Origin: an uncultured Erysipelotrichaceae bacterium
Lineage (GTDB): Bacteria; Bacillota_I; Bacilli_A; RF39; UBA660
Reading direction: 5' to 3'
NCBI GenBank assembly: GCA_902796215.1
Contig: CADBNY010000151.1
Location: 1 to 28,609, forward strand
Length of the DNA: 28,609 bases
Every line of letters begins with the position of its first letter. Positions within the stretch are counted from its first letter, which is position 1. This document shows positions 1,514 through 19,920 of this stretch, in pieces. The position numbers were made by a program, and so were the translations under genes. The notes beneath the pieces were generated by a model. That model was not told the DNA's origin. It did no database searches and saw only the letters and a program-made list of their open reading frames with translations.

Positions 1514-2101
1514 TTATTCTTGTTCTTCATTCTTTTCTATTCTTCTTATTTCATTCTTTTCTATTTTTATATCTGTAATTGTCTGCAACACTTCTAAAAC
1601 AATGACCAATACTAAAGGAATAAAAATAAGCAAGAAAAAGCCAACTTGACTTTTTACAACATGATTAATTGTTGAAATAATAGGTAAAATTCCTATCACT
1701 TTTCCAAGTATTTGTGCCTCATCAATACTAGGATCTTCCACTTGAGAAGCAACACCCTTTGTCGTATAAATATATTTTCCATCAGATTTTTCTTCCATTT
1801 TTATAATTCTATGTGTAACTAATTTTCCTTGCAAGTCTCCCCTTATTCCCTGATATGCTATATCATCTCCAACCTTTAAACTTTTTGTATCACAATCCTT
1901 TACGATAATAACATCATTAATATCATATACTCCAGCCATTGAACCAGTAGCAACAGTAAATAACCGATATCCAAAAATACTTTTATTACCAGATAAACGT
2001 TGAAGCATAATAAATGATAAGTATAAAACAACCATCAAAATAAAACATATTTTAATTGTCATATAAACATTTCTAAAAATCTTATTATTAAAAATTTTCA
2101 T
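1514..2101 (-). CDS. sipW: Signal peptidase I, SipW/ER-type (S26B), 195 aa
   Basis: N-terminal TM, catalytic Ser box FTVATGSM, GDDIAY, His box VTHRII, KGxxxxxxD, and a C-terminal TM. Confidence 0.92.
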   Translation of the reverse strand: MKIFNNKIFRNVYMTIKICFILMVVLYLSFIMLQRLSGNKSIFGYRLFTVATGSMAGVYDINDVIIVKDCDTKSLKVGDDIAYQGIRGDLQGKLVTHRIIKMEEKSDGKYIYTTKGVASQVEDPSIDEAQILGKVIGILPIISTINHVVKSQVGFFLLIFIPLVLVIVLEVLQTITDIKIEKNEIRRIEKNEEQE

Positions 2102-3212
2102 TATCTAAAACACCCTCTTTAAACAAATCCAATAGTTCATTTATTTTATTATTCTCTCGCATTAAGCGATCTTTAAAAATATTATAAATACTATCTTCTC
2201 TTTCTTTATTCTTAGCTTTAATAGATTTAATTTGTTTATTGAAAATATCTTGTAACTTATCTTCTGTAATATTAGGATCCGTATCTAACAAATTATCTAC
2301 TAAACGCTGTATCATTTGATTAATAACAGAACTTTCATTAGCCCTATCACTGCTATTAATATAATTTTTATTTGCAATAAAAGCCATTAAAAAAGCTTGA
2401 TCGTATTCATTTTTTAAAACACCTTTATCAAAAAAATCACGCTTTTCTTTTTCTTTCTTATCTTTACTTTCAAATGACTGAATATAATTCCATAATTCCT
2501 CAGCTTTCCTAAAATTTGGATTTTTTAAAATAACATTTGTTTTTCGAATAGGACTACGAACAGGAGGAACATGTAATCTTGATAAAGTAAGCATTAACTC
2601 AGTACCAAAAAAACCATCTATTTGCATTTTTGCTTTTTGAATTCTCTCATCAAAAGAAAGATCATTTTTATCGCCACTACCTTCTTGAATTTTTTTAGAA
2701 ACATCACTTAAATCTAAAGAAATTTTTAACTCTTCTCCAAAAACACTTGTATTTGCAACATATTGAAGTTTATTTTTATCTTGACAATATGAAGTTCCAG
2801 AAGTTTCTGAAGTCCTTTTTTCAAAAAAATTACGTAAATTATTTAACAAAGTATGAATAAAACGGTTCTCATATGTATCTAAACTTTCATCTTTATTAAT
2901 ATTTAATATTTTAGACGGTTTAACATCTCCATTATCTTCAATCTTCTGTATTAAATTAGTATGTTGTGTCAAATGAATAACGGATTCTACAGTTACTTTT
3001 CGTGCTAACTCAACTTTAACGATTTCTTCATCATTAATAATAAATCTTTTAGGGTTACGCAAAATATTATCAATATATGGTAAAACATCTTCGATTTTAT
3101 CCAACCATTCATAATTAAACTCTTTTAACTCATAATCTCGCTTAATAAATAATGTAGAATTCAAATTACTAATAAAGGCTTCATTTCTATCAAATTCTTC
3201 ATCATTATTCAT
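2088..3212 (-). CDS. DUF2357-type McrC-like protein lacking the PD-(D/E)xK nuclease domain, ~374 aa (alternative start 3227)
   Basis: DUF2357-like motifs LRNPKRFI, DTYENRFI and TNVILKNPNFRKAEELW. The remaining ~130 aa are helical and charged, with no PD...(D/E)xK. ATG at 3212 has RBS GGAG. The 3' end overlaps the sipW start by 14 bp. Confidence 0.75.
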   Translation of the reverse strand: MNNDEEFDRNEAFISNLNSTLFIKRDYELKEFNYEWLDKIEDVLPYIDNILRNPKRFIINDEEIVKVELARKVTVESVIHLTQHTNLIQKIEDNGDVKPSKILNINKDESLDTYENRFIHTLLNNLRNFFEKRTSETSGTSYCQDKNKLQYVANTSVFGEELKISLDLSDVSKKIQEGSGDKNDLSFDERIQKAKMQIDGFFGTELMLTLSRLHVPPVRSPIRKTNVILKNPNFRKAEELWNYIQSFESKDKKEKEKRDFFDKGVLKNEYDQAFLMAFIANKNYINSSDRANESSVINQMIQRLVDNLLDTDPNITEDKLQDIFNKQIKSIKAKNKEREDSIYNIFKDRLMRENNKINELLDLFKEGVLDNENF

Positions 3213-3226
3213 TCTACCATCTCCCA

Positions 3227-4780
3227 TTAAATCATTTTCTTAAGTCTTAGTAAATACTCCTTACATTCATTAAAGTTTTGCTTTCCAAAGCTCTTATCCA
3301 AAAATTCAATAAATGGATCAATATCATCTCGAATATAAGCTAAGTTTAATTGTTCAAATTTACGAAGTATTTTTCTTGCTATATAATAATCTACACCATC
3401 AACTTCTGTACCACCACACGCAACATATGTTGCAACAAAATCTCTCATTTGCTTAACAATACGATTACCAAAAGCAATACGGAAATGTTGAATAACATAA
3501 TCATCCATATCACTGATTTTTTGTTCCATTTCAGCAGTTAACGGATTATTTTTCTTAGCTTCAGCAAATAACCCTTCTAAATAAGAACTATTAATATTCA
3601 TAGCATCAGTATCAACAGGTTCAAAAACTTGCCCTTTATCATTAATATCAATTGGCATAGCACGGTCATATACTTTATCAGTAACAGCAAAAGTAGAATC
3701 ATCATTATTAATCGTACCAATATACCACATATTACCTGGAATTTTTAATTTACCAGCTTGAAGTTTAACCGGATCATTATCCCAAGAGCTAGGTACTAAT
3801 TCAATAATCCATTCATCTCGTGAAGGCATTTCTAGAATTGACAACATTTCTGCAAAATAGTATTCAACACGAGCAATATTCATTTCATCAAGTACAGTAA
3901 CATAAACATCATCAGTATATCCAGCTAAATACATTCCTTTTAAGACATCAGTTTCATTAAACTTCTTTGTAAACTCATTAAAATAACCAAATAACTCAGT
4001 ACGATCTCTCCAGGAGGGTTGAACAGACGCTATAATTGCATCATTCTTAATAAATTTTCCCCAAGCATAAGCAAGAGAAGTTTTACCTGTACCAGAAATA
4101 CCCTGTAGAATAACTAATTTTGTTGCAGATAATCCAGAAATAAATAATCTTATCATATTAGTTGTATAATAAAGTTTCAATTTAGAAGCCGCAAAATTAC
4201 GAAATTCTTCTACCAATTCTTCTAATGTAAAACTATTTCCATAGTCTTGAATCTTATAATCCTTAAATTGAACATCAATAGAATGTAATTTAGAAAATCT
4301 AGCATTTGGATCATCATCAATAATTCCAACTTCACTACTGTTCTCTTCTTCACTATCACTAATAGTTTCTTCTTCAATTGTAGCCTCTTCCCCTGGTTTT
4401 AATCCTAATTGAGACACTTTCATTGCAAGTATTTTCTCTTTTTCTTGCACCAAATCAGCAACCTTATTATTTAGCATTCCAATCTCTTTTAGCATAGACT
4501 CTTGTTCCACTAGTGTTTTTCGAAATCGAATATATTTACGAACTAAAAAGACAATCGACAAAATAATTAATCCTAATATAACAATCATTACAATAATTGC
4601 TAATATTGCTAATACCCATTCTCCCCCAGAAAACTCCTTTTGATAAAGACCAATAATAGACAAATAATCTTGAATATTAAAAACTTGAATAAAACCATTT
4701 AAAATTCCACTTATCATAGTCCCAATACCATTAAAAAAAACGGACATAAATTCAAATAAAAAACGAAAATAAGTCTCCAT
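3227..4780 (-). CDS. Membrane-anchored McrB-like AAA+ GTPase, ~517 aa
   Basis: Walker A GISGTGKT, Walker B VLDEMNIARVEYYFA, McrB NxxD signature TINNDDST, and KVYDRA. The N-terminus has an amphipathic segment, a TM helix (WVLAILAIIVMIVILGLIILSIVFLV), RKYIRFRK, a coiled coil and an acidic linker. Start corrected to ATG 4780 (RBS GAGGAGG). Confidence 0.85.
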   Translation of the reverse strand: METYFRFLFEFMSVFFNGIGTMISGILNGFIQVFNIQDYLSIIGLYQKEFSGGEWVLAILAIIVMIVILGLIILSIVFLVRKYIRFRKTLVEQESMLKEIGMLNNKVADLVQEKEKILAMKVSQLGLKPGEEATIEEETISDSEEENSSEVGIIDDDPNARFSKLHSIDVQFKDYKIQDYGNSFTLEELVEEFRNFAASKLKLYYTTNMIRLFISGLSATKLVILQGISGTGKTSLAYAWGKFIKNDAIIASVQPSWRDRTELFGYFNEFTKKFNETDVLKGMYLAGYTDDVYVTVLDEMNIARVEYYFAEMLSILEMPSRDEWIIELVPSSWDNDPVKLQAGKLKIPGNMWYIGTINNDDSTFAVTDKVYDRAMPIDINDKGQVFEPVDTDAMNINSSYLEGLFAEAKKNNPLTAEMEQKISDMDDYVIQHFRIAFGNRIVKQMRDFVATYVACGGTEVDGVDYYIARKILRKFEQLNLAYIRDDIDPFIEFLDKSFGKQNFNECKEYLLRLKKMI

Positions 4781-4781: not shown

Positions 4782-5834
4782 TTAATCCTCCTCAAAAAGC
4801 AATATTTTCAAAGTCTTTCCTTCATAATTAAGTAAATATTCCTTATCTTTATACTTATAATCGGAAAGAACTAAATAATCAAAAATTCCCTCTTTCTCAA
4901 TATTTTCAATCTTTTTATAAATATCATGAATATGAGAAAAATCCTGAATACATACAAAATGAAAATCTTCAGAAAAAGCATCTTTTTGATTCACATAAGT
5001 ATTATAAGTAACACCTAAATAAACATAATGACGAAATAAATGATTATCAATTAAAGAAAAAATATTAGAATCAATTTTTCCTCTTTTAATAAATGAATCA
5101 TCTAATTTAATAATAAAACGAGGGATTTTTTTATTTTCAACAATATTTTTTAAAATATATAAAGACAACTTCTGAATAAGACACTCTATCTTGTCCTTAA
5201 ATAATTCATCCTTAAAAAAAACTCTAGTAATCATCGTCTTCCTATAATTATTTAAGACATCAATATGATAATCAAGCTCAAAATATTTAACCTCATTACA
5301 TCCTTCGAAAGACTTCTCATTAAGACAATAATAATGATCTCGATAATTAAATAACTTATTTATTAAATTATAATTTTTTTGAACCATTTTAATAAACTTT
5401 GCTAATCTATTTTTTATATGTTCTTTATAAAAATAATTATTTTCAACAAATTCAATAACAGCTTCAGATAATTGCTCCTTATCATTTATTTTTAATTGAT
5501 CAATCTTTAAAACTTCTAAAGAAAAATCTTTTAAGCCTTTAATTGCTTGTACATGAAAAGAATATTCTTGATTACTCTCTTGTAATTCATATTGTCGATA
5601 ATCATCCAGCATTTCTATCATTGTCCCTTGAAATTCTTTACAAAGATTATCTAAACTGTAAATAGAATCATCAACCGTATAAAAAATATTATAATAGTAA
5701 TTATCAACATAAAGAGAAAAATAATCTTGAAATACTTTTCGAATAAAAGGTGAATCATCATCTAATAGAAAAACTCCATACTCAACAAGGTATTGTATCT
5801 TATAATTCATAAAAATACTAATTACATTATTCAT
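4782..5834 (-). CDS. Hypothetical protein with a possible degenerate EAL-like C-terminal domain, ~350 aa (alternative GTG start 5846)
   Basis: The order and spacing of RFIIKLDDSF / YVYLGVTYN / FVCIQDFS / IFDYLVLSD resemble EAL motifs ISVNLS / LEITES / IAIDDFG / FDYIKID, with the catalytic residues replaced. The stop lies 1 bp from the next ATG. Confidence 0.45.
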   Translation of the reverse strand: MNNVISIFMNYKIQYLVEYGVFLLDDDSPFIRKVFQDYFSLYVDNYYYNIFYTVDDSIYSLDNLCKEFQGTMIEMLDDYRQYELQESNQEYSFHVQAIKGLKDFSLEVLKIDQLKINDKEQLSEAVIEFVENNYFYKEHIKNRLAKFIKMVQKNYNLINKLFNYRDHYYCLNEKSFEGCNEVKYFELDYHIDVLNNYRKTMITRVFFKDELFKDKIECLIQKLSLYILKNIVENKKIPRFIIKLDDSFIKRGKIDSNIFSLIDNHLFRHYVYLGVTYNTYVNQKDAFSEDFHFVCIQDFSHIHDIYKKIENIEKEGIFDYLVLSDYKYKDKEYLLNYEGKTLKILLFEED

Positions 5835-5861
5835 AGAATTCACCAACCTTACTCAATTAAA

Positions 5862-5892: not shown

Positions 5893-6825
5893 CTAATTTG
5901 CTGTATTAACAGAAACTTGAATAATTGAAGTTGGATTAACAACCGGATAAGTATAATCCCTAGTAATATCATCTTTATAAAATATTATTTCACTACTAGA
6001 ACTAGCATTAACTTTAAAAGAAAATTTCGAAACATACTGATATCCATTAATTGTTTGTTCTTGATAATTATCAGAAAGACGATGAAGATACAAACTATTC
6101 ATCATATCAACAAATAATTTTTCTGGATTATACTGAAGTGTTACAATAGCAGAAAAACACTTATTTTTATTTTCATCTGTTAAATCATTATAATCATCTA
6201 AACTAATTTGATCACCAACATGATAATTCAAAAAAGGCTCCTCTACCTGATAATAGGAAATAGAATTTAAAAAACGAATTGTTAAATACTTCGAATTAAC
6301 GCTATCTTCTATTTCATAAGAAAAATTGCTTTTTTCAACTCCTATTGTATAAGCAGCACTCATTGTTTTATGATAAGGAAGATTAGAAGAAACAGAAGTT
6401 TCTACTAAAACAGTATCATTTGCATAAAAATTTTGTAATGGTGTAACACTAATTTGATAAGAATCTGTTTCATCATCTGCTCGAATAATTCCACTATTTT
6501 TACTCAAAGTACAACTAACAGTACTAGGACAATTAACATTAATGGTATAACTAATATCTGTTCTAGTAACTCTTTCAGCATTTTTACGATTATTTAAATC
6601 AATTGTTAATGTATAAGTATTAACACCATCCCAGTTATTTATATTATAATTTTTGCCATTAACATTTAAAATACTACTATTAAAATAAAAACCCTTAGTT
6701 TCTAATAAATATTGTGAAATAATATTATGAATATAACGACCAAAAGCAAAAGAAATAAATAAGAAAAACACTAATAAACATAAAATAATAATACTTCTTC
6801 TTTTATATTTTCGAATATATTTCAT
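5893..6825 (-). CDS. SipW-class signal peptide protein (fibre subunit or minor component), 310 aa
   Basis: Basic N-terminus, hydrophobic helix, FAFG|RY, then a beta-rich body with Cys residues. No C-terminal anchor. Confidence 0.7.
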   Translation of the reverse strand: MKYIRKYKRRSIIILCLLVFFLFISFAFGRYIHNIISQYLLETKGFYFNSSILNVNGKNYNINNWDGVNTYTLTIDLNNRKNAERVTRTDISYTINVNCPSTVSCTLSKNSGIIRADDETDSYQISVTPLQNFYANDTVLVETSVSSNLPYHKTMSAAYTIGVEKSNFSYEIEDSVNSKYLTIRFLNSISYYQVEEPFLNYHVGDQISLDDYNDLTDENKNKCFSAIVTLQYNPEKLFVDMMNSLYLHRLSDNYQEQTINGYQYVSKFSFKVNASSSSEIIFYKDDITRDYTYPVVNPTSIIQVSVNTAN

Positions 6826-6839: not shown

Positions 6840-7451
6840 TCATATAATTTGTTGAGACTCCAATATAACTTCAATACTTTCTAAATAATCCGCATAAACA
6901 CTGTTTGCAGAATAAAGAGAGGGAAATTGTATAACTATTGTATAAATATCTGTTACATCATTTTCATAACTCATTTGATAATTACTAATGGCACTATACT
7001 CTCTATACCACGCCCCATCTACATCTTGTTTTGAACTAGATCCTTGAAAAAGATTAACTGCCCCACTAGCATCTGGTAATTCATTACAATACATTGAAAT
7101 AGTAATTGGTAAATTGGTCGTTGTTCGAACCTTAACTCGATAAGAAATATCCACATCACTGTGTTTACTAGCATTATAATTAGATACACTAAAACGATAT
7201 ACATAAGCCTCATCTTGAGGAATGATTCCTTCTGATTCTAAATTAAAAGACATTTTCCCATCTTCAAAAATATATAAGGCTTTATCAATATTAGCATTAA
7301 CTTTAGCACGTATTTCATATCTTGAATAAGTATATTGTAATAATCGAAATGCTAAAAATAAAATCAACAACAAAAAGAATCCGAATAATATTAATCTTTT
7401 TTTTTCCTCAAAAAAAGATATATTCTTAATTTTATTAATTAATAAATTCAC
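6840..7451 (-). CDS. SipW-class signal peptide protein (fibre subunit candidate), 203 aa, GTG start
   Basis: Hydrophobic helix then YTYS|RY. Beta-rich body (IIPQDEAYVYRFSVSN...DVDISY). RBS AGGTG. Confidence 0.72.
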   Translation of the reverse strand: MNLLINKIKNISFFEEKKRLILFGFFLLLILFLAFRLLQYTYSRYEIRAKVNANIDKALYIFEDGKMSFNLESEGIIPQDEAYVYRFSVSNYNASKHSDVDISYRVKVRTTTNLPITISMYCNELPDASGAVNLFQGSSSKQDVDGAWYREYSAISNYQMSYENDVTDIYTIVIQFPSLYSANSVYADYLESIEVILESQQII

Positions 7452-7459: not shown

Positions 7460-8077
7460 CTACGGTTCTACATATTCTTGAATAGTCTCTCCTCGATATT
7501 GAACAGCATGAAAATGAATTTCAAAAAAATCATCTAATATTTGATTATCTTCTGTTATCCCTTCAATATCAACTAAATAATCAAAATAAAAATTAGCACT
7601 AAGATGAAATTTTCTATTATTTGCTATATCATCTAAAGTTATAATTCCAGTATAAGTATCTTGACTTGTTCGAATAATTCCATCATTTGAAATTATCTCA
7701 GAAAAAGTCAAAAGTTTATCATCATCTATTTTTTTATCAACAAAACGAAATTCATATAATATAGCAACATCACTACCACTAGGATCAATTTCCAAATCAA
7801 TTGTACCAGAACTACCTGGAGATATTTTTTCTTCTCGAGTATGAGTAGATACCCAAGTTGTATTATCTAAAATAACTCGATTATCTAACGTACCATCATT
7901 ATTAGCAACCGCATCTACTCCATTTATTTTCAAACTTATTCCAGCAATTGAATTTGTTACTGCACCTTCAATAATAGACTCATAAGCAGTATAAGTAAAT
8001 CTAGCATTATAATACAAAAAACAGCCACCTACAATAACAATTAAAAAAAACATCAATATCTTTTTATTGTTTCTCAT
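7460..8077 (-). CDS. SipW-class signal peptide protein (fibre subunit candidate), 205 aa
   Basis: Hydrophobic helix then FTYT|AY. The ISPGSSGTIDLEID motif is shared with 142..729. Confidence 0.72.
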   Translation of the reverse strand: MRNNKKILMFFLIVIVGGCFLYYNARFTYTAYESIIEGAVTNSIAGISLKINGVDAVANNDGTLDNRVILDNTTWVSTHTREEKISPGSSGTIDLEIDPSGSDVAILYEFRFVDKKIDDDKLLTFSEIISNDGIIRTSQDTYTGIITLDDIANNRKFHLSANFYFDYLVDIEGITEDNQILDDFFEIHFHAVQYRGETIQEYVEP

Positions 8078-8203: not shown

Positions 8204-8848
8204 TTACAATATCTCAATATTATCTTCTGTTTTTTTATCTTCTAATGACTCTTTCTTAATATTTTCTTCTTCATTTTTCCCTTTTTTTGATTCACTATTT
8301 TCATCACCAGAAGAATCCATAGTAAGTTCAACTTTTTCATAACGAACAATCATAATAAATTCATATACATGGTAAATAAAGACAATAAGGATTGGTAATA
8401 ATACACAAAATAAGAAACCAATTCTACTCTCTAAAAAATTCAAAATAGACCCAAGTTTATGATAAGTATGAGAATATTTTCCTAATACTCTAGTACCAAC
8501 AATACTAGTTGGTCCAGAATCATCAACTGTATATAAATAACTATAATCATCATTTTTTATGCTCATTACAGGAGAGCTTTTAATAATATAATCATCATTA
8601 TATACAGCATAATAATAAATCAAATCACCCTCATTAATGTCATTACTATTTTTGACAACTAATAAATCACCTTTTTTAGTATTATCAATATTTTTTTCAG
8701 CAAACAAATCAATATTTGTAAAAGTATAATCTCCAAATTGAGTATATCCATACTTATTTCTACACAATAAGAAACAAGTTAGAACAATAACATAAACAAT
8801 AATAATAAATTCTACTACAAACCAAATTCCCCTTAAAAACTTCTTCAT
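8204..8848 (-). CDS. Catalytically inactive SipW-like protein (pseudopeptidase), 214 aa
   Basis: Colinear with SipW: TM, FGDYTFT, GDLLVVK, EGDLIYY, VLGK, and a C-terminal TM GFLFCVLLP. The Ser box TGSM, His box THR and KGD are all replaced. Confidence 0.7.
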   Translation of the reverse strand: MKKFLRGIWFVVEFIIIVYVIVLTCFLLCRNKYGYTQFGDYTFTNIDLFAEKNIDNTKKGDLLVVKNSNDINEGDLIYYYAVYNDDYIIKSSPVMSIKNDDYSYLYTVDDSGPTSIVGTRVLGKYSHTYHKLGSILNFLESRIGFLFCVLLPILIVFIYHVYEFIMIVRYEKVELTMDSSGDENSESKKGKNEEENIKKESLEDKKTEDNIEIL

Positions 8849-8912: not shown

Positions 8913-11900
8913 CTACGATGTTTTTTTATGAATAATAATATACTTTGTTTCACTATCAATTAATTGATTATTATCATATAATTTAAAGACTATTCGATAA
9001 GTTCCACTCGTTAAAGATGTCTGTAAATTAAAGTCCAAATTCCTTTCTGTTAAACCGTTCATATCTAGATACATTTCATTTCCACTAGCAGGAATAAAAG
9101 CATTACTAAATACAGACCTAAATGGTATTGAAGTAAATTGAGTAGAATCAATAGAATCAATATCGCGTTTAAATAATTCTACTCTAAGATTTGGATTAGT
9201 AAGTTGGGAATTATACTTAATATGATAAGTATTAGTAGTTCTACCATTCATATTTTTCCCTGTTTCTCCATCAATAATCTTATCCTTATCATCACCATCT
9301 ACAATAATAGAATTATCAGCACTTACAACATAAACAGTAAATTCTTGAGTAATAGAATTTTCATAAATAGAATTATGCAAGCCATCATCAGAAGCAAATA
9401 ATGTATATCGAATTTTATATTCGCCTGGAGGTAAATCTTTTGTAACAGTAATTTTCGGTAACTTATCCAAATTAGATACTTTATTTGCTAACTTAATTCT
9501 AAAAATTCCATCCCCATCAGCAAAATATTCATGATTATCTAACATGATACTAGTACCAGTTAACATACTAGAACTAACAGAAACTCCCTCTTTATCAAAT
9601 AACGAAACATTAAGCCCCATACTACTTGATTCATAATTAGTATCAATTACAGATTGTCTATTTTCTGTTTCATTATATTGAATTCTAGTAGAATAATTAA
9701 ATTCATCAGCTACATTGTAATATAAATAAGAATCATTATTGGCAAAAGTCTGATTTAAGACAATATTACTGCTATCATAAGTATTATAAACCATTAAAGA
9801 TTCTCGAATACCTAAAACATTAAAAACAGTACGATCTTCATGATTACGAAGTTCAAATAACATAGAATTACCTAAATGTTCACCAGTAGTACCTGTTTCT
9901 TTAAAATCAAAAATAAACATAAATTCTTCATCAACTAAACCAACCTCATCATCATAATAAGCATGATTAGCTACCCTATCATCGTAAGTATTATTATTAC
10001 TAGTACTGCCCATTTTAATAAAATTATGAAGTGGATAAACAATTTCATTATATAAAGATAATTGCTCTAAAGAATCATTGTATATATCTTGAGTTACCGT
10101 AAAATAGTAATAATCTGGTCGATTAGGATTTGCTCCATAATCAAGCATAGTAATCATTGTATTAACTGGTAATGGATGATTCGTAGTTAAAACATGATAA
10201 TTTTGATTATTATTTCCATATACACTTTCAAATCTATCATTCCAAGCAGTTAATGAATAATATGTACTAAATTGACTCTGATTTGTAATATTAACTAAAG
10301 TTGATGAAGGCATTTCATACCTTTTATCATATGTGATAGAAGCATCATAACTATCTGCATCATCATATTTTCTAGAAACTAAATTAATAGTAACCGTAAT
10401 AAATTTAATATCATATTCAATAGCATTCTTAGGAATATCCGCCCTTAAAGTTAAAACTACAGTACCAAGTCTTCCCTGGCTATTAATATTTTTAGCATGA
10501 TACAAGTAAAACATCAAAGATGGAGGAAGTTTTCTACTATCTGTTTTATAATTCTTATCACCTGTCAAAGCTCCCCCATTTTGACTCAATAATTTAGTCA
10601 CACCATAACCGGTCCATTCTTGCGTTTCAGCCTTCATTGAAAGACCTAAAATATTATTTGCTTGTTCTTCTGTTCGACCAACCCTAGGAACATTATTCGA
10701 ATCCACTAATTGAATTTCACTATTTAATCCACTACTATCAAATCCAATAGCACTAAAGTTTGTATTACCATCAGCAAAATCAATCAATTGCAATTCATAA
10801 GTACCTAAAGAAGAATACTTAGAAGCAGTCAAAGTAAATTCATAATTAATAGCTTCAAAACCAATAATCCAACGATAACCAGTTTCACCAATTGGACTAG
10901 GATCAATATAAGCAACCTTAACTTCTGTATAATCATCATTTAAATAATTTGAATAAAAACCATCTTTTGTAATATCATGATCAACATTATGAAGACCAAT
11001 AACATAACTACCTCCAACAATTTCTAATCCAGCATTACCAGTATCACCATAACTTAAATCATCATCATATAAACCATAACGATAAGTACCATTATCATAA
11101 CCAGTATACATTCCAAAGAAAGTCATACCAGTTACTCTACCATAAGCAGTAGCAGCTTGATTAATTGTAACATTCAAATTTTGACCAGGTAGCATATAAA
11201 TCCGATTATCAACGTTTTTAGTAACACTTCCACTATCATCATCAATATCAACAATCGCTGGTACTAATGTACCATTAGAGTCAACTCCACTATATAATTC
11301 TTTTAATAAATTTGCATTATGTTGAAGTAATAAAACACTATCATTTTTCAATATTAATTTATCAATAATATTAAATGAATATAAAATATCAGAATACTCA
11401 TTTGTTCTATCCGTTGTACCTTCAAGCTCAATAACAGAATGATCAATAATCAAATTATTAGCTCTTTGAATAGAAATGCTTTTATTAGGAGCTTCTCTAG
11501 AACCTAAATTTTTAATAGTAATATTAGAAGTTCCTGAAGAACTAGAAGCATTTCCAGAACCAAAAACACTACCATTTATAATAAAATCATGATTATTATT
11601 TATATATCCTGTACCATTAATATCAACATCAATTCCTCGGGTAACGGAGATAAATGTCCAGTCATAAGTCTCACTACCACTAGCATTACTCTCTCCTCCA
11701 CCAAAAACTGTTCCACTAATATGAATATCATCTTCATGAAGTCCATTGACAGATACAGAACTAGTACCAATGTTAGTATCAGTTGTTCCATAAACAATAG
11801 CCATTTTAGGTCCGCCATAAACATTTCCATGAATAATTCCTCCTACAAGATTAACAGTAGCAATAGAATTACCCACACTTTGAAGTCCAGTACTTGCAGC

Positions 11901-14900
11901 ATTCCCGGAACCAAACACACACCCTGCATTAGGAGCTTCACTAGAAGATGTTCCAATTTCTGATTCACCATCAATAGTAATTGTTGAATTTGTATGAACT
12001 ATCGCAGTACTACCATTACCTCCCGCAAAAGCATTACCTAAAATATGCGCATCAGTTACAAAAACACTAGTACTACCTTCAACAACTCCTTCACATCCAC
12101 CACCATAAATATTATTAGAAACAGTAGAACCATCAATATCTAAAATAGTATTACCCGTAACACCAGCAGCATTACCACCACCATAGATATCAACAGCTGT
12201 AATAGAACCAACTATTACATTCGAAGAGCCAACACTAGCCTCGTTTCCTCCACCATAAATAGTGTGAACATCACCTTCATTTGCCGTAACATTAGCAACA
12301 CTTGTAATACCTCCATGATTATTTCCCCCATAAACAGTTTGAACTCTAATATTAGAGTTTGGAATATTATTACCTAACTGAACATTAGATGTTCCAACAT
12401 TACCAGATTCGTTAGAACCTCCAAATAAATTTGTAATTGTACCACTTTCAACTAATACATTTGTATTTGTAACTCCGGCTTCATTCCCTCCGCCATAAAC
12501 ATTTGTTATATTACCACTATGAATATTAACTTGACTTATTAAAGAAGAAGCATTGTCTCCTCCACCAAACAAATTCGTAATAGAAGAAGATGTAGTATCA
12601 ATATTAGCATTAGTCGTTTGTCCACCTTGATTATTCCCACCATATGCACTTGTTATAATAGAATTGACAATATAAACATTACCTGTACCTACAGTTCCAG
12701 AAACATTAGAACCACCAAAGACAGAGTGAAGAGTATCATTTTGAATACTTATATTAGTAGCCGTAAGACCAGCTTTTCGTCCTCCACCATAAACATCTTG
12801 TAAAGAATCAATATACCCAGAAACAGTAACATTACTAGTACCAGAAGAAGCTTCATTTCCTCCACCATAAATATCCCCACTAATATCGGCCCCAACAATT
12901 GAAACATTAGTAATACCTGTCGAACCATCTATATTATTACCACCATAAATATCTGTGACAGAACCGCTAGTTACTGTAACATGAGACTCTGTAACTGTTC
13001 CTAATAAATTAGAGCCACCATATAAATTGCCCGTAATAGTAGAACCCTGTAAATAAATATTAGTGCTATCTTGATTAACTTCATTTCCTCCACCAAAGGC
13101 ATTACCAATCGAGCCAGCGTTTAAATAAACAACATCTCCACTACTAGGCTTTCCAGAGGCATCAAAACCACCAAAAACTTTACCAATAGAGCCACCATTA
13201 ATATTAACAGTAATATTTCCCAATACATAAGGAGTAGCAGAATCACTTCCTTGAGCTCCACCAAATACACTGCCATGAATAATACCATTAGAAACAGTAA
13301 CATTAGTATTTCCACTAGCTGTTCCACTTATTGATGTTGCATTAACAGTTCCATAAGCACTACCACCATAAACAGAACCATTTATTACAGGATGATTAGA
13401 TACAGTATTACCAATAGACACATTAATATTTGAATTAACAAATGTATTATTTCCTCGTCCACCACCATAAACATTATGTGTAATATTTCCATCATAAACA
13501 TTTACATTTACTGAACCATAGACAAGTCCTTCATTATCAGAACCACCATATATATTTCCGATTGTTCCGCCATATATATTAATATTAATAGCACTAGATG
13601 AAGAATAATTAGATTGACCAAATCCAGCTGATTTAGAACCACCATATATATTTCCGATTGTTCCATCTAAAACGTCAATGCTAGAAGAGGATGTATTAGC
13701 ATATTGTGTACCAGCAGAGCCATAATTACCTCCCCCATAAACACTCTTATTAATCGTTGCTCCATTAACAATAATACGTGAATTATAAACAGTTCCTTTA
13801 GATGTAGAACTAGTATTACCTCCACCAGCTCCAAAAACAGAACCAGATTCTACTCCATACAAAGAATCTATCTCATCACCAATAACTGCATCTCCACCAA
13901 TATAAATAAGAGTAGAACCTTGGACAATTCCATCAGTAGTATCGGAAGAACTATAACTATCAGAACCACCAAGAACACTATAATGAACTTTACCACCTGT
14001 AACATTTATAATACGGTTCCCTTGCGTAGTAGAATGACCAGCTCCTCCATATATTTGCCGAACCTCTCCTCCAGACATTCCAATAAAAGAAGAATTAGAA
14101 TTCACTCCACCATTAAAACCATAGCCACCTAAAGCAATATTAATATATCCACCTTCAATTTTTACACCTGTAATGGATTCTACATTTTTTGCATTCCATC
14201 CACCAATATATAAGCCGGTAGTACCATCAGTATTAGCAGTACCATTTGTATTAAAACCATAAGTACCACTTTTCAAAGTTGTAAAAGATAAAAACAAACT
14301 ATTACTTCCTGCTATATTAGAACCACTATTGGAATAACCATCAAGACCAATTAAAAACCATAAATTATCATTATTATTATTAATTCGATCATAATCATTA
14401 CCTAATATATTTTCCTCATTGAAAGTTGATGTATAACTTCCACTATCTGCACCACAACGATATGAATAATATCTTCCAGTTTCAATAATAACCTTAAAAG
14501 AACCACTAGCACCATTAGTAACGCCACCATAAATTCGATTTGCTATCAAATAATTATTACCTCTACTGCTAGTTACATTTCGCCCAATTTTGAAATTATT
14601 AGAATTTGCATAAATTGCATAAGTTGTTGGTTCATCACCCATAGAATAATTATTTGAACCAGTACCACTAGGACCATAAAATTTAATATTTTCAATAACC
14701 AAGTCATTTCGAACAGTCAAGTTATTTGCAACATTAAGAATTCCTGTAGGATTAGTTGCATTAATATCCGTACCCGTTACAGTAAAAGGTCTATTCACTG
14801 AAATATTAGAAATAGTTAAAGCTGTAGTACTAGTATATCTAAAAATATTAGTATCCCTAGTAACTAAATAAAAATATTTATTAGAATCAACAATTTCTCC

Positions 14901-17240
14901 ATTATATTCTTCAACTATTGATATCGAATTACCTCGTGAATTTAAAATTGAATCATTATACCTAATCATTTTATAGGCTGTAGTACAATCACTAGCATTA
15001 GTACATAAAGTACCATCACCAGTATAATATTCTTTAGTACTAATCATATCAATAGTTGGATTACTTACTTGATAAAATAAGCCTACTGTACTTTGTCCAG
15101 CTAATAAAGTAGTTGTATAATGTGGAATTTGTACAGTATCCCAATAACTACCATTAGAATCAGCAATAAGATTCATATAATTAGAACTGTAATAATATAT
15201 TGTTGTCTCTGTATTATCCCCTGTCGAATCAAAATCCGGTATAAATGTATAATTACCACCAGTATATTCAGTACCACCAACAATACCACTTGTATTTGCT
15301 CTATATGCATAACAAGTACTATATCTAGGGCATCTTGTCCTAGTACCACCAACATAAGTATAAGTAGTGCCAGACTGATTTGTCTTATACCAAATTCCTT
15401 GTGGCATATACCCATCATTCCGCACATAAGAACGAGTATATTCCATTATTGCATAATTCTGTTTCCAATAAGCTCTTCCTTGTATATTTTCCTGTGTATA
15501 ATGAGAAAATGTACTCATAGATTGCATGGACATAGAATTAAAATCACTAATATCACTAGCACTAGTCACAACATCAGCTTTAATCCAACTAGCATTTAAA
15601 TGAACAATAATCTGACTTCCACCATCCACAGGAATATCCATATATCTGGTATAATTATTCTTTTGAAATCCAATTATTGAACTCTCACATATAGAATCAC
15701 TAGAATCACTATTTTGATTGCACACCCATCCATTAAATCCATATTCAGAATTATTAATGTAAGGTCTCTTAGAAAAAGGATTATCAATAAGTTCAATATG
15801 AATATAATGATTACCATTATTATCAGTTAATAAATTACCATTAGAATCTCTCTCTAATCCATAATATTTATAATAAACAAACTTATTAATAGCGTTTTCC
15901 CCATTTATAGGAGACATAAATCCTACTAAAGAACTATTATTAATATCAACACCATCATAAATCATTTGTACTTTTACCAAATATTGATCATCATAATATC
16001 CAGAATTAGTACTAGGTAAAGAAGTATTTTGAACCTCTGTATAATTTAAACCCTTTAAATAATTATAATCACTATCAAGATCATTAACATAAAAAGTATT
16101 TCCTGATAAACCAGATTCATGAGTAATAATATTACTAGCACCCCTAGTTTTAATAGAAAAAGAAAAATTACTAGGTTTATTATCAATAATATTACTTGTT
16201 TTTATTTCTTCTTGCTTAACATATTTTTTCAAAACAAATTGATTTTCTTCATAATCCCAATAATAATCACTACTATTATCATTAAATTCAGAAAGTAACA
16301 TTTCATTAGAAATTTCCTCTCCATCTAAATATATTTTTCCATCTTTCACAATATAATGATTTTTAATTTTCTCATTAGAAAAATTAATATCATTCATATT
16401 TTCCAATGAAATATTACTAATAACTTTATATACTTCTCCATCTATATTATCCGATATAATACCAATTTTATTATTATTATCATTTCCTCTAATTCTTCCT
16501 ATAAAGGATAAATTATACAAATAACTATTAGAAGAAACACTTTTAGTAAATACACCAATATAATTATCACTACTTTTTATATCAGCATAATCAATGTCAA
16601 AATCAATAAATGATAAATTTACAAATTGGCTTAATACAGTTTCTTCATTTATATTCTCATCTTTACTGTTTGTTAAAACTTCTCCAATAAATCCTACAAT
16701 ATTATTATATTCATGCTCATTTTCATTTACTTTTATTTTAAAAGACCTCATTATAAGATTTTCAATACTAGCATTTTCAACTTTAGTAAATAAAGAATAA
16801 TATGAAACATTATCTACAACAACATCTTGATCTATTTTTAAATTATAAATAGAATGTCCCCTACCATCAAAATGTCCTTTAAATATTTTATCCTCTTCCG
16901 AAGTAATAATACCAATACTAGAAAAGCTCTTATCTCCAAAATTTAAATCACCATCTAAAGCATAATATTTATCTTGATAAGATTGATAATTATCTCCTTC
17001 TATTAAATTTTTAAAATAAACAAATTCCTCTGGACTTCTAATAATATATGGATTTTCACTTGTTCCATTTCCAGATTCAAATTGAGTTGCTACTGAAACT
17101 CCATCCCATGGTTGCTCCAACGAACCAAAAGTAAGTTTACCCGTTAAAAGTAAATAAATAAAAAAAGAAAAAGAAAGCACAATAAAAGCAATGAAAAAAG
17201 AAATAAAGGTTTTTTTATAAATTTCATTTCTTATTTTCAC
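8913..17240 (-). CDS. Giant surface protein / adhesin, ~2,775 aa: N-terminal TM or SipW-class signal, GLUG-like region, (Y/F)GG beta-solenoid repeats, C-terminal Ig-like domains
   Basis: Start probably GTG 17240 (RBS GGTGG; the ORF track starts at 17249). LTFG|SL follows the TM. GNGTSENPYII and FKGHFDGRGHSIYNL are GLUG-type adhesin motifs. There are about 30 xx(Y/F)GG repeats. C-terminal LPPGEYKIRY and LTSGTYRIVF. No LPxTG or C-terminal TM. Confidence 0.8.
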   Translation of the reverse strand: MKIRNEIYKKTFISFFIAFIVLSFSFFIYLLLTGKLTFGSLEQPWDGVSVATQFESGNGTSENPYIIRSPEEFVYFKNLIEGDNYQSYQDKYYALDGDLNFGDKSFSSIGIITSEEDKIFKGHFDGRGHSIYNLKIDQDVVVDNVSYYSLFTKVENASIENLIMRSFKIKVNENEHEYNNIVGFIGEVLTNSKDENINEETVLSQFVNLSFIDFDIDYADIKSSDNYIGVFTKSVSSNSYLYNLSFIGRIRGNDNNNKIGIISDNIDGEVYKVISNISLENMNDINFSNEKIKNHYIVKDGKIYLDGEEISNEMLLSEFNDNSSDYYWDYEENQFVLKKYVKQEEIKTSNIIDNKPSNFSFSIKTRGASNIITHESGLSGNTFYVNDLDSDYNYLKGLNYTEVQNTSLPSTNSGYYDDQYLVKVQMIYDGVDINNSSLVGFMSPINGENAINKFVYYKYYGLERDSNGNLLTDNNGNHYIHIELIDNPFSKRPYINNSEYGFNGWVCNQNSDSSDSICESSIIGFQKNNYTRYMDIPVDGGSQIIVHLNASWIKADVVTSASDISDFNSMSMQSMSTFSHYTQENIQGRAYWKQNYAIMEYTRSYVRNDGYMPQGIWYKTNQSGTTYTYVGGTRTRCPRYSTCYAYRANTSGIVGGTEYTGGNYTFIPDFDSTGDNTETTIYYYSSNYMNLIADSNGSYWDTVQIPHYTTTLLAGQSTVGLFYQVSNPTIDMISTKEYYTGDGTLCTNASDCTTAYKMIRYNDSILNSRGNSISIVEEYNGEIVDSNKYFYLVTRDTNIFRYTSTTALTISNISVNRPFTVTGTDINATNPTGILNVANNLTVRNDLVIENIKFYGPSGTGSNNYSMGDEPTTYAIYANSNNFKIGRNVTSSRGNNYLIANRIYGGVTNGASGSFKVIIETGRYYSYRCGADSGSYTSTFNEENILGNDYDRINNNNDNLWFLIGLDGYSNSGSNIAGSNSLFLSFTTLKSGTYGFNTNGTANTDGTTGLYIGGWNAKNVESITGVKIEGGYINIALGGYGFNGGVNSNSSFIGMSGGEVRQIYGGAGHSTTQGNRIINVTGGKVHYSVLGGSDSYSSSDTTDGIVQGSTLIYIGGDAVIGDEIDSLYGVESGSVFGAGGGNTSSTSKGTVYNSRIIVNGATINKSVYGGGNYGSAGTQYANTSSSSIDVLDGTIGNIYGGSKSAGFGQSNYSSSSAININIYGGTIGNIYGGSDNEGLVYGSVNVNVYDGNITHNVYGGGRGNNTFVNSNINVSIGNTVSNHPVINGSVYGGSAYGTVNATSISGTASGNTNVTVSNGIIHGSVFGGAQGSDSATPYVLGNITVNINGGSIGKVFGGFDASGKPSSGDVVYLNAGSIGNAFGGGNEVNQDSTNIYLQGSTITGNLYGGSNLLGTVTESHVTVTSGSVTDIYGGNNIDGSTGITNVSIVGADISGDIYGGGNEASSGTSNVTVSGYIDSLQDVYGGGRKAGLTATNISIQNDTLHSVFGGSNVSGTVGTGNVYIVNSIITSAYGGNNQGGQTTNANIDTTSSSITNLFGGGDNASSLISQVNIHSGNITNVYGGGNEAGVTNTNVLVESGTITNLFGGSNESGNVGTSNVQLGNNIPNSNIRVQTVYGGNNHGGITSVANVTANEGDVHTIYGGGNEASVGSSNVIVGSITAVDIYGGGNAAGVTGNTILDIDGSTVSNNIYGGGCEGVVEGSTSVFVTDAHILGNAFAGGNGSTAIVHTNSTITIDGESEIGTSSSEAPNAGCVFGSGNAASTGLQSVGNSIATVNLVGGIIHGNVYGGPKMAIVYGTTDTNIGTSSVSVNGLHEDDIHISGTVFGGGESNASGSETYDWTFISVTRGIDVDINGTGYINNNHDFIINGSVFGSGNASSSSGTSNITIKNLGSREAPNKSISIQRANNLIIDHSVIELEGTTDRTNEYSDILYSFNIIDKLILKNDSVLLLQHNANLLKELYSGVDSNGTLVPAIVDIDDDSGSVTKNVDNRIYMLPGQNLNVTINQAATAYGRVTGMTFFGMYTGYDNGTYRYGLYDDDLSYGDTGNAGLEIVGGSYVIGLHNVDHDITKDGFYSNYLNDDYTEVKVAYIDPSPIGETGYRWIIGFEAINYEFTLTASKYSSLGTYELQLIDFADGNTNFSAIGFDSSGLNSEIQLVDSNNVPRVGRTEEQANNILGLSMKAETQEWTGYGVTKLLSQNGGALTGDKNYKTDSRKLPPSLMFYLYHAKNINSQGRLGTVVLTLRADIPKNAIEYDIKFITVTINLVSRKYDDADSYDASITYDKRYEMPSSTLVNITNQSQFSTYYSLTAWNDRFESVYGNNNQNYHVLTTNHPLPVNTMITMLDYGANPNRPDYYYFTVTQDIYNDSLEQLSLYNEIVYPLHNFIKMGSTSNNNTYDDRVANHAYYDDEVGLVDEEFMFIFDFKETGTTGEHLGNSMLFELRNHEDRTVFNVLGIRESLMVYNTYDSSNIVLNQTFANNDSYLYYNVADEFNYSTRIQYNETENRQSVIDTNYESSSMGLNVSLFDKEGVSVSSSMLTGTSIMLDNHEYFADGDGIFRIKLANKVSNLDKLPKITVTKDLPPGEYKIRYTLFASDDGLHNSIYENSITQEFTVYVVSADNSIIVDGDDKDKIIDGETGKNMNGRTTNTYHIKYNSQLTNPNLRVELFKRDIDSIDSTQFTSIPFRSVFSNAFIPASGNEMYLDMNGLTERNLDFNLQTSLTSGTYRIVFKLYDNNQLIDSETKYIIIHKKTS
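11550..14540 (-). repeat. About 30 degenerate protein repeats of roughly 25-30 aa, consensus I.xx(V/I)(Y/F)GG(G/S)N.x.V.G.T.V.I.xG
   Basis: Read from the translation: NIYGGSK, NIYGGSD, NVYGGGR, SVYGGSA, SVFGGAQ, NAFGGGN, DIYGGNN, NLFGGGD, TIYGGGN and others. Confidence 0.9.
13539..13664. repeat. Exact 30-bp direct repeat pair within the adhesin gene
   Basis: agaaccaccatatatatttccgattgttcc at 13539-13568 and 13635-13664, encoding GTIGNIYGGS twice. Confidence 0.9.
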
Positions 17241-17254
17241 TGCTACCACCCACT

Positions 17255-18493
17255 TTAATAATTATGTATTTTTACAATACGTTCAATTTTATCTAATTCA
17301 AATACTTTCTTATTATCAAACTTATTTGATATTTTTTGCATAAAAGTAATTTGATTTTTTATCTGTTTGATAGCATATTTATCAGAAGTAGATATTTTTT
17401 TAAAATAATTACCTTGATCTACCAACACTTTATATTTTAATATTTTATAAATACCATCAAACATTTCTTGATCATTATAAAGAATAGAATACGTTAATAA
17501 TTGTAAAAAGATATAAACAGGCATATGATATATACGATTACGTACAATTTCTGTCAATCCAACTCTTTCTAAATCATAATCATATAATTCTTGAAATGGT
17601 GGATTATTTATTTCTTCAACAAAATATTTAGTATCTGAAACAAGTAAAATATTACAAAGTTTATAGATATATTGATATTTTTGTAACCATTTTTTAGTCA
17701 TTCTAATTTTAAAAACTTGAGCTTTTTTACATTTTAAAATTGAAGTAACTATATCAATTGTTTCCTTCTCTTTAAGATGATCATTACCTGATACATTTTC
17801 ATGAAGTGAAGATTCAATATCATCTAAAATCTCTATATCAGATGTTTTTTCTAATTCTTTCTCATGATTTTTTTCTAAAGTTTCAATTTCTTGTAATGGA
17901 ATTGTTACTGTTAAACCAGATGGTGCTTCCTCTTTTCGATTACTAGGTGATAAGAATATATCATCAGGTACTTTCTTTTGCTCATCCTTTTCTGTTTTTT
18001 TCGTATCTTTTTCCTTCATAATAAACTTACGAACAATACCATCAAAATTAACTAACGCTAAAAGAATAAAAATAATTAAGAAAACAGCAATAGATTTCAA
18101 AATAAAACTTGGAGAAATAGAGCAACAAACCCTACCTATTATTTGATCTTTCGATATTGCCTCATCTACTGAATTATTTACATCACCTTTAGCAATATAA
18201 TCTTCATTATTGATTTGAATTAAACGATGGGTAATAATTTCTCCATCCTTACTCTTATAAGTAATAATATCATTTAAATGAACATCTTTTGTTAATCGAA
18301 TAAAAATAATATCATCAACTTCTATACTACCTGACATAGAACCAGATGCCACTACAAAATAAGTATGTCCAAAAATATTAACATAATCTTTTTTCATAAT
18401 ATCCGTAACAATAAAGGTATATATACATAAAGTCACTAAAAGAACCAAAAAAATAGATGCAACATATTTAAATATGTTCTTAACTTTAGTCAT
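17255..18493 (-). CDS. sipW: SipW-type signal peptidase I with a ~260-aa C-terminal cytoplasmic extension, 412 aa
   Basis: VVASGSMS, DIITY, ITHRLI and KGDVNNSVD are intact. A second TM is followed by a charged/acidic linker and an unrecognised helical domain. Confidence 0.85.
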   Translation of the reverse strand: MTKVKNIFKYVASIFLVLLVTLCIYTFIVTDIMKKDYVNIFGHTYFVVASGSMSGSIEVDDIIFIRLTKDVHLNDIITYKSKDGEIITHRLIQINNEDYIAKGDVNNSVDEAISKDQIIGRVCCSISPSFILKSIAVFLIIFILLALVNFDGIVRKFIMKEKDTKKTEKDEQKKVPDDIFLSPSNRKEEAPSGLTVTIPLQEIETLEKNHEKELEKTSDIEILDDIESSLHENVSGNDHLKEKETIDIVTSILKCKKAQVFKIRMTKKWLQKYQYIYKLCNILLVSDTKYFVEEINNPPFQELYDYDLERVGLTEIVRNRIYHMPVYIFLQLLTYSILYNDQEMFDGIYKILKYKVLVDQGNYFKKISTSDKYAIKQIKNQITFMQKISNKFDNKKVFELDKIERIVKIHNY

Positions 18494-18706: not shown

Positions 18707-19153
18707 CTAGGGATGATTTTGTACTCCACCATTTCCTCCACCAGTACTAAATCCAACTTTAGTATCTGCGTTAAGATCAGCTTCAAGATTTTCATCTTGA
18801 GTCTTGTAAGCAGTTTCAACAGAATTAATAATATCCTGTTCTGCTGCTGTTAAAGCTGCATTAAGATTATTAGCAGTTTCTATAATTCCATCAATAAAAG
18901 TACCAATACCAGCCTGAACTTTTTCACCTTTAATAGCAGCATCATTTTGCGTATTTTGAATTTCTTTAACCTTATTGTCAATATTTGTTTTTAATTCCTC
19001 AATTTTACTAGTAACATTTGTAGCAAATGTTGGTGTAATACCTACACTTCCACCATTATCCGGAAAAGGATTCGTAAAAGATATTATATCCATAGTTTTA
19101 TAAGAATCACGTTTTTCACTAGTAACAGCAGTTCCTTTCATTTGTATCGGCAT
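18707..19153 (-). CDS. WXG100-like T7SS substrate with N-terminal extension, 148 aa
   Basis: Helix-IKG-helix pattern, C-terminal VETAYKTQDENL (YxxxD signal) and a Gly-rich tail. RBS AAGGAGG. Confidence 0.65.
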   Translation of the reverse strand: MPIQMKGTAVTSEKRDSYKTMDIISFTNPFPDNGGSVGITPTFATNVTSKIEELKTNIDNKVKEIQNTQNDAAIKGEKVQAGIGTFIDGIIETANNLNAALTAAEQDIINSVETAYKTQDENLEADLNADTKVGFSTGGGNGGVQNHP

Positions 19154-19181
19154 AAAAATCCTCCTTAACTTATATTATTTT

Positions 19182-19508
19182 TTAACCATCTAGTTCAATC
19201 ATACCAGCATCATTAGCTTTCATACTTCCTTGAACAGCACTTAATTCATTAACAAGATTCTGATACAAAGCCTCACAAGCTGCCATGAATTGATCAAAGT
19301 CTTTATTCAAGTTAGAAATAAAATTATTCTTGGCAACTCCAGACCATTCTGCTTCACAAACAGTATTTATGTCATTAAAACCTGTTTGTAATACTTGTTG
19401 CATTTCAGTAAAAACTTTTGCTTTTATTGTGTTATCTAAATAATCACCTAACTTCGCACTATCATAACCATACTCCATTTCATCTACAGATGGACCAACC
19501 TCAGCCAT
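19182..19508 (-). CDS. WXG100 family protein (EsxA-like), 108 aa
   Basis: Central EWSGVAKNNF WxG motif, ~100-aa helical hairpin, C-terminal MKAND. RBS GGAGGTG. Confidence 0.85.
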   Translation of the reverse strand: MAEVGPSVDEMEYGYDSAKLGDYLDNTIKAKVFTEMQQVLQTGFNDINTVCEAEWSGVAKNNFISNLNKDFDQFMAACEALYQNLVNELSAVQGSMKANDAGMIELDG

Positions 19509-19525
19509 AATAACACCTCCAATCT

Positions 19526-19840
19526 TTAAATATTATCATCAATTTTACTGACACTTTGTGTAGTTACTAAGGCTAAATCACTATCTTGTTGAGCATAACT
19601 AGCTTCAACTTTTCCAAGAATATCAATGTAAGAATTAATAATTTTTGCCGTTTTTGCCCACTCTTTTCTTATAGCCGTAAACTTATTAATTATCTCATTT
19701 CTGCAAGATCCTCCAAGAGAACTTTGTAAAACATTATAATAACCATCTAATCGAAGAGATAAAGCATTGATTTCTTCAACATATCCTAGCAAACTTACTT
19801 TTACACCATTAATTTTTTCAAGATTAATTCCTGTAGCCAT
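19526..19840 (-). CDS. WXG100-like protein, 104 aa
   Basis: Central SLGGSCR (WxG variant) and C-terminal VEASYAQQDSDL (YxxxD). RBS GGAGG. Confidence 0.75.
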   Translation of the reverse strand: MATGINLEKINGVKVSLLGYVEEINALSLRLDGYYNVLQSSLGGSCRNEIINKFTAIRKEWAKTAKIINSYIDILGKVEASYAQQDSDLALVTTQSVSKIDDNI

Positions 19841-19871
19841 TAGCCTCCACCTACCTAAATATCATAATTCA

Positions 19872-19900: not shown

Positions 19901-19920
19901 GAACAATCAATTATTTGACA

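Follow-up and report, generated by a model that had tools for sequence, protein, structure and literature searches.

CoCoPALM systems were named by Bell et al. (2024, eLife, PMC11090510) in one paragraph, with their analysis deferred to a later paper. In that description a McrB-like GTPase is fused to an FtsB-like transmembrane (TM) and coiled-coil segment, both the McrB and the McrC homologues carry coiled coils, genes of the signal peptidase family are associated with the two, and a link to pilus assembly is proposed. The same paper describes an NxD branch of these GTPases, the NxD being "usually followed by a glutamate or a second aspartate". The name CoCoPALM was found in no paper after this one, and we found no paper that substantively connects SipW with McrB. 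Here we analyzed a 28,609-nucleotide stretch of DNA from an uncultured Erysipelotrichaceae bacterium (contig CADBNY010000151.1), the whole of which is called the window. It encodes a McrB-like GTPase (3227-4780, 517 aa) followed by a DUF2357/McrC-like protein (2088-3227, 379 aa) and a SipW-type signal peptidase I, that is one of the endoplasmic reticulum (ER)/archaeal type (sipW, 1514-2101, 195 aa). All genes of the locus are on the minus strand except the gene for a 195-aa secreted protein (142-729), which is on the plus strand.

Because all four features described for CoCoPALM are found here, we file the pair as a CoCoPALM member. The GTPase is of the NxD type in an alignment of 28 homologues. 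A TM helix (residues 55-80) and a heptad-like helix (89-125) are fused to it, a likeness to FtsB in architecture only, accompanied by a weak FtsL-family match. Signal peptidase genes adjoin the pair in 77 of the 80 loci from a scan of species-representative genomes, which gave at least 593 matches, and are present on both sides in nine of the ten loci from other families. The McrC homologue has a predicted coiled-coil or helical tail (322-377). Nothing at the locus contradicts the published description, and the identity of the pair was set by matching that description. The architecture was already named and the pilus link already proposed in 2024, and the idea of a role in fibers is not new. 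Added here are the absence of a nuclease as judged from a structure model, the presence of several SipW paralogues, one of them apparently dead, a conserved upstream gene (orf354), a giant protein, and the levels of conservation. The reading we favor, with somewhat more confidence than doubt, is that the pair would act as a GTP-driven membrane motor or switch on SipW-dependent fiber export or assembly; that judgement counts motor and switch together, a purely regulatory switch taking up a minor share of it.

The pair shares with canonical McrBC (E. coli K-12; structures 6hz4 and 6ut6) an AAA+ GTPase core that has both Walker motifs and the sensor Asn, a DUF2357 partner in which a long hairpin occurs, and a gene order with B ahead of C. 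However, canonical McrB carries an N-terminal DNA reader where a TM helix and coiled coil are found here, McrC carries a PD-(D/E)xK nuclease while none was detected here, and the canonical signature is NxxD instead of NxD[D/E]. Sequence similarity is remote (E ~1e-5), and the context here is one of secretion and fibers. The nearest GTPase relatives are those of the CoCoNuT systems (CnuB/CnuC with CnuH), at 38-45% identity over the GTPase domain and E 1e-60 to 1e-78. The NxD[D/E]ST motif and the fusion of coiled coils to the GTPase are common to both, but the CoCoNuT GTPases are cytoplasmic with no TM helix, occur with UPF1-like helicases and nucleases, and fall in separate groups of the tree. 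No helicase or nuclease gene was found in the window or in the 80 loci, the flanks of the latter having been compared with the window's own proteins. In the two CoCoNuT-type neighborhoods inspected no SipW gene was called. An earlier note on this DNA had taken the pair for a disarmed McrBC without its reader; reader and nuclease are indeed absent, but this does not describe its ancestry best, since the nearest relatives are not canonical NxxD McrB proteins but coiled-coil NxD GTPases like those of CoCoNuT, which occur with UPF1-like helicases.

On the side of export, the tapA-sipW-tasA operon of B. subtilis and the archaeal bundling pili resemble this locus in having an ER/archaeal-type signal peptidase beside small signal-anchored beta-sandwich proteins. 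Those systems are not known to have an NTPase, whereas this locus encodes the GTPase pair as well as a giant protein, at least five small putative substrates and up to three SipW paralogues.

The GTPase and its McrC-like partner

The GTPase gene begins with an ATG at 4780, with an alternative TTG start 5' of it at 4795. The TM helix (residues 55-80, 4541-4618) has a Kyte-Doolittle value of 3.59 and is preceded by a weaker hydrophobic segment. Right after it come a basic patch, RKYIRFRK (81-88), then a heptad-like helix (~89-125) and an acidic linker (131-157; 11 D/E in 31 residues). By the positive-inside rule the GTPase domain would be cytoplasmic. Residues 1-160 gave no domain match in Pfam or NCBIfam and contain no DNA-reader domain, only the TM helix, coiled coil and acidic linker. 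The FtsL-family match mentioned above covers residues 64-116 at E 0.025.

Motif invariance was scored on the alignment of 28 homologues, which are 32-57% identical. In the Walker A motif GISGTGKT (residues 227-234, 4079-4102), G227, G230, G232, K233 and T234 are invariant, as are D298 and N301 in the Walker B motif VLDEMN (residues 296-301, with the D298/E299 pair; 3878-3895). The sensor or signature motif reads N358-N-D360-D-S362-T363 (3692-3709). While N358, D360, S362 and T363 are invariant, position 361 can be D, E, Q or G, and the conserved signature of the family is therefore NxD[D/E]ST. Across 150 family representatives the pattern GTANxD[DE]ST was seen again. The string NNDD is compatible with NxxD too, and in a gapless hidden Markov model (HMM) alignment to E. 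coli McrB the equivalent Asp is ambiguous.

A profile of the family aligned with the GTPase core of the E. coli McrB structures (6hz4, E 1e-5), and the protein matched McrB in NCBIfam (E 2.6e-6) and the candidate model PDC-M26A in PADLOC (3e-34). The protein is one of the McrB-family GTPases in the NxD (CoCoNuT-like) branch and is tethered to the membrane by its TM helix plus coiled coil. The intact Walker A and B motifs listed in the earlier note were borne out by the invariance of the Walker A residues and D298, and hydropathy and sequence agree with the N-terminus that it described, a TM helix followed by basic residues, a coiled coil and an acidic linker. The NxxD signature it named fits the letters of this one protein, but the form invariant in the family is the NxD one.

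The partner encoded next to it reaches 42.9 bits for DUF2357 in Pfam (cut-off 23.3; residues 38-140), in agreement with the DUF2357 motifs noted before, and DUF2357 proteins in AFDB clusters match the N-terminal part of the protein. An AlphaFold2 model built on 41 homologues, with a mean predicted local distance difference test score (pLDDT) of 83.5, has a mixed N-domain, a long helix (116-141) and a two-stranded beta-hairpin of 40 residues (145-184, 2676-2795), the strands of which (145-162 and 165-184) reach a pLDDT of ~90. This predicted hairpin probably corresponds to the stalk with which McrC enters the McrB ring. In an exhaustive structural search residues 35-254 of the model aligned to McrC from T. 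gammatolerans (6ut5_G, Z 6.7) and from E. coli (6hz4_M, Z 6.5), both alignments ending at the expected start of the McrC nuclease domain.

The region where McrC has its PD-(D/E)xK nuclease (residues 255-379, 2091-2465) is modeled as one strand and three helices, the last of which, at 322-377, is 56 residues long. Only coiled-coil structures matched this tail, and structure searches of the model in PDB and AFDB found no nuclease. In the family alignment there is no invariant residue and no conserved acidic residue or Lys past W246. Given the helical C-terminus, the lack of a nuclease match and the absence of invariant residues after W246, we conclude that the protein has no PD-(D/E)xK core, as the earlier note had claimed, and no conserved catalytic motif; no nuclease or effector fold appeared when the C-terminus was checked by model and structure search. 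As modeled, the McrC-like protein keeps the DUF2357 N-domain and the hairpin and has a helical coiled-coil tail instead of the nuclease. Foldseek of the model against PDB gave nothing significant, and a search of PDB sequences with the family profile gave a lone helical match that was judged spurious.

In other lineages the McrC-like protein can be longer. Such variants, of 600-900 aa, have long acidic or helical tails, and for the eleven searched in Pfam the result was DUF2357 or nothing. One homologue of 1171 aa (P0390) has a hyper-acidic tail of ~550 aa made of tandem DLTDEELEAFAAIPEEELAELEEL repeats, and one homologue is annotated as SbcC/Rad50.

Operon layout, synteny and conservation

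From the gene for a 205-aa secreted protein (sec205, 7460-8077) to that for a 249-aa secreted protein (750-1499), successive genes are at most 46 bp apart. The stop codon of orf354 and the ATG of the GTPase are 1 nt apart, the GTPase stop and DUF2357 start have 1 nt in common, and the DUF2357 gene overlaps sipW by 14 nt. These open reading frame coordinates agree with the nearly gapless arrangement and the 14-bp overlap described in the earlier note, and sipW is translationally coupled to the McrC-like gene. Scans for promoters and terminators found 83 where 73 were expected, which is uninformative in DNA this rich in AT. A search of public sequencing runs matched the locus only in bovine-gut DNA sets, and in no RNA runs.

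The 80 loci are from gut and rumen metagenome-assembled genomes, representing Bacilli, Erysipelotrichaceae, Mollicutes/Tenericutes, Clostridia, Acutalibacteraceae, Ruminococcus sp. CAG:488 and Oscillospiraceae. In 78 of them the GTPase gene is followed by the DUF2357 gene, and the other two end at a contig edge. A SipW homologue is encoded no more than 216 bp from the pair in the 77 loci noted above, one of the three exceptions lying at a contig end. The earlier note had proposed a comparison of gene neighborhoods; made here, it places the TM-type homologues beside sipW and not in defense islands. At least two SipW genes are present in 51 loci, TasA-like secreted proteins in 62, and a homologue of the giant protein, 10 kb or less from the pair, in 46. 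Homologues of the window's 249-aa secreted protein are encoded in 59 loci, those of its 195-aa beta-sandwich protein in 53, and those of the SipW paralogue sipW214 in 52. A member of the orf354 family immediately precedes the GTPase gene in 54 of 75 loci.

Two layouts were seen. In the first, which is the window's own, the order is McrB, McrC (~375 aa), sipW and a substrate gene; in the second, sipW precedes McrB and a long McrC. The loci with signal peptidase genes on both sides, nine of ten in other families of Bacilli, have the order sipW-McrB-McrC-sipW. In one sub-lineage (L077:7748-9916, L097:7731-10001, L100:7749-10004 and similar loci) the SipW upstream of the GTPase is ~720 aa long with a very long cytoplasmic C-terminal domain, and its gene overlaps the GTPase start or ends a few nt from it, giving the same sandwich. 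At several loci from other families (L114:10590-11522, L115:1043-1879, L118:5521-6294, L122:3-371) the C-terminal TM helix and tail of the upstream SipW match the TM and coiled-coil part of the GTPase profile (positions 45-136) at E 1e-6 to 3e-5. Judged from these sequences, the match may reflect a shared module or a compositional likeness.

One AFDB cluster, A0A3D2N2X5, is a 993-aa protein labeled 'Signal peptidase I' that aligned to residues 7-377 of the McrC-like protein at E 1e-20, a hint from predicted structures of a natural McrC-SipW fusion; a search of 120 long McrC-like homologues turned up no fusion of this kind. Together with the SipW-tail match, this cluster hints at direct coupling of the GTPase pair to SipW. 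The pair could instead act on an unrelated cytoplasmic target and be merely an operon-mate of the SipW and fiber genes. A 1:1 complex prediction for the McrB-like and McrC-like proteins, which can be cited for this view, scored 0.01 and is uninformative either way. We regard mere co-regulation as very improbable, however, with start and stop codons overlapping sipW, adjacency preserved in two gene orders and two classes, a GTPase anchored in the membrane, and the possible McrC-SipW fusion all speaking for a closer connection.

Between genomes of the same genus the GTPase is 76-82% identical. In those genome pairs identity is 84-90% for the N-domain of SecA and ~41% for EssC. No other gene of the locus is as well conserved as the GTPase, the values being 53-71% for DUF2357, 49-63% for sipW and 30-63% for the substrates. 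These sequence identities indicate that the GTPase is under strong purifying selection, near housekeeping level. It is encoded in 18 of the 24 genomes of the genus, and the McrC-like family in 69 of 399 genomes sampled from the phylum, concentrated in a few families with small genomes.

The wider GTPase family has more than 8000 near homologues, and 757 of the representatives at 50% identity match at E <=1e-30. Three architectures were found: one or two TM helices in ~500 aa, three or more TM helices in ~600-700 aa, and no TM helix in 700-900 aa. In a tree of the GTPase domain the proteins with one or two TM helices form one group, with 97 in the SH-like approximate likelihood ratio test (SH-aLRT), the multi-TM proteins another (SH-aLRT 99), and those with no TM helix are placed apart from the first. 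The latter are encoded with UPF1-like helicases and DUF2357 partners, which are operons of the CoCoNuT type. In the multi-TM clade (P0157, P0179, P0204 and 37 other representatives) the proteins carry three to five TM helices at the N-terminus, and a partner peculiar to the clade, of 464-663 aa, is encoded downstream; we found no published description of this clade. No SipW was seen in either of two multi-TM contexts (L023:2899-6741, L129:1190-4445), one of which has an ABC transporter. A distant TM-type protein of 41% identity, P0137 (L022:1-8695), is encoded with a 380-aa upstream and a 324-aa downstream partner, right after phage-like DUF859 and Phage_holin_1 genes.

These relatives bear on a second explanation, in which the pair is a conflict or defense system. 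A membrane-tethered, McrBC-derived sensor would then have SipW or another neighbor as its effector, or would guard a fiber that serves as phage receptor, and the outcome would be abortive infection or receptor shedding and not the building of fibers. The protein does belong to the CoCoNuT-like NxD branch, cytoplasmic members of which occur with UPF1-like helicases in defense-type operons; it matches the PADLOC model, and one distant homologue, that at L022, is found beside phage-like genes. We consider a defense role unlikely nonetheless. The pair has no nuclease or other recognizable effector, and the GTPase is conserved at close to housekeeping level, in contrast to EssC. From species to species of Bacilli and Clostridia the synteny and the position are kept with no island-like turnover, and no restriction-modification, CRISPR or other defense genes were found among the neighbors, the flanks having been compared with the window's own proteins only.

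SipW peptidases and other neighbors

The SipW of the window's core, sipW195, scores 67.2 bits for TIGR02228 against a cut-off of 51.85 and matches SipW NF046067 at E 7e-21. Its Ser (TGSM) and His (VTHR) boxes and the conserved EDP are all present. Two paralogues are encoded further upstream. The larger, sipW412 (17255-18493, 412 aa), has the canonical S/H/GD boxes and a long cytoplasmic tail of ~260 aa. The other, sipW214 (8204-8848, 214 aa), retains both TM helices but lacks the Ser (GSM) and His boxes, and it is therefore probably a pseudo-peptidase, as far as its sequence tells. The genome also codes for a LepB-type signal peptidase (C137:4959-5399), and the SipW genes therefore encode dedicated enzymes.

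Five signal-anchored secreted proteins are encoded nearby. Three precede orf354: sec205 (205 aa), sec203 (6840-7451, 203 aa) and sec310 (5893-6825, 310 aa). The 249-aa protein is encoded directly 3' of sipW, and the divergent gene on the plus strand codes for a 195-aa beta-sandwich protein resembling TasA and other SipW-cognate proteins. The model of the latter (pLDDT 86) has a signal-anchor helix and a beta-sandwich, which matched the TasA fiber 8aur at Z 6.0 and the chaperone-usher adhesin FimH at Z 6.8. In AFDB it matched proteins named 'SipW-cognate class signal peptide', 'Spore coat-associated protein N' and 'Alternate signal-mediated exported protein' (E ~4e-4), while Pfam and NCBIfam gave zero matches. 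From this model it is plausible that the secreted neighbors are TasA-like fiber subunits.

Between sipW214 and sipW412 is the gene for the giant protein (8913-17249, 2778 aa), whose N-terminus bears a TM or signal segment and for which Pfam gave nothing up to E 0.01. At other loci it is occasionally found right after the McrC-like gene (L058, L084, L101).

The gene orf354 (4782-5846, 354 aa) encodes a cytoplasmic protein whose family was not recognized, with no match in Pfam or PDB. A weak atlas lead (score 0.90) to an EAL domain found no support: none of 32 family members matches EAL in HMM searches, and a PDB-profile search gave no EAL either. The window's genome, which is 80% complete, encodes one GGDEF protein (G000:C96:805-1236), and PF00563 (EAL) has no match in it up to E 10.

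It is in this context that a nucleotide-state switch in place of a mechanical motor has to be weighed. The pair, perhaps together with orf354, would be a sensor of GTP or of some other signal and would do no more than regulate SipW activity or the expression of the fiber genes. The SipW tail of B. subtilis has a regulatory role that is not proteolytic, and the long cytoplasmic tails of the SipW paralogues here would suit such a role, as would the tight coupling of the GTPase to orf354 directly upstream, the GGDEF protein and the atlas lead for orf354. With that lead failing the HMM and PDB-profile searches, and with no riboswitch or other Rfam element matched in the window up to E 1, we think a pure switch rather unlikely. 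The invariant Walker A and B and sensor motifs and the McrC-like hairpin would instead point to stimulated hydrolysis of the McrBC kind.

Immediately upstream of the fiber locus is a cluster resembling a type VII secretion system (T7SS; 18707-25729), coding for a 1547-aa EssC-like ATPase, a YukD-like protein of 118 aa and six small helical proteins. A link of this cluster to the GTPase pair was considered and rejected. In five genomes of the same genus EssC (~41% identity) is on other contigs or ~170 kb away, and the adjacency is therefore not conserved.

A possible role in fiber export

In our favored reading, that of a motor or switch acting on SipW-dependent fibers, the GTPase would form a cytoplasmic hexameric ring under the membrane and the McrC-like hairpin would enter the pore of the ring and stimulate GTP hydrolysis, both by analogy with the McrBC structures. 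Judging from its context, the ring would hang from the membrane by six tethers of TM helix and coiled coil. The GTP cycle might then be relayed via the coiled coils and TM helices to the SipW peptidase or peptidases, or to membrane-anchored substrates, and so gate or power the cleavage, release or polymerization of the fiber subunits and the giant protein; for these last steps the genomic context is our guide. The pair would not then be a DNA-cutting restriction system.

A bolder form of the proposal makes the pair the energy-transducing core of a new route to surface fibers in monoderm bacteria. A McrC-like shaft would drive the tethered hexameric GTPase, as in McrBC, and the GTPase would work on SipW peptidases and their membrane-anchored TasA-like substrates, so that the substrates are extracted, cleaved and polymerized. 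We hold this to be possible though doubtful, and are just as tentative about the further suggestion that it would be a machine of another kind than type IV pilus ATPases, sortases and chaperone-usher systems.

Several observations weigh against a role in the fiber machinery. The closest relatives that are not membrane proteins are found in defense-type CoCoNuT operons, to which the PADLOC match can be added. Genomes of the genus with no GTPase match still carry three to seven SipW genes, and one that is 94% complete lacks the pair yet has five SipW paralogues; with such genomes in existence, the pair is dispensable. The evidence for a TasA-like fold in the substrates is weak, the 195-aa model being no closer to TasA than to chaperone-usher adhesins, and the matches to the McrC fold are middling (Z <7). 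The low score of the complex prediction is counted here as well. To our knowledge the TasA/SipW fibers of B. subtilis need no NTPase.

If the proposal is correct, the motor of a restriction enzyme would have been recruited to the cell envelope together with a dedicated signal peptidase, in abundant uncultured gut and rumen bacteria with small genomes. A step dependent on nucleoside triphosphates would be added to the TasA/SipW pathway, which in B. subtilis is without a known motor. The class is widespread, with at least 593 matching stretches in one scan of a genome collection, and it would provide a clear case of a defense module turned to the biogenesis of the cell surface.

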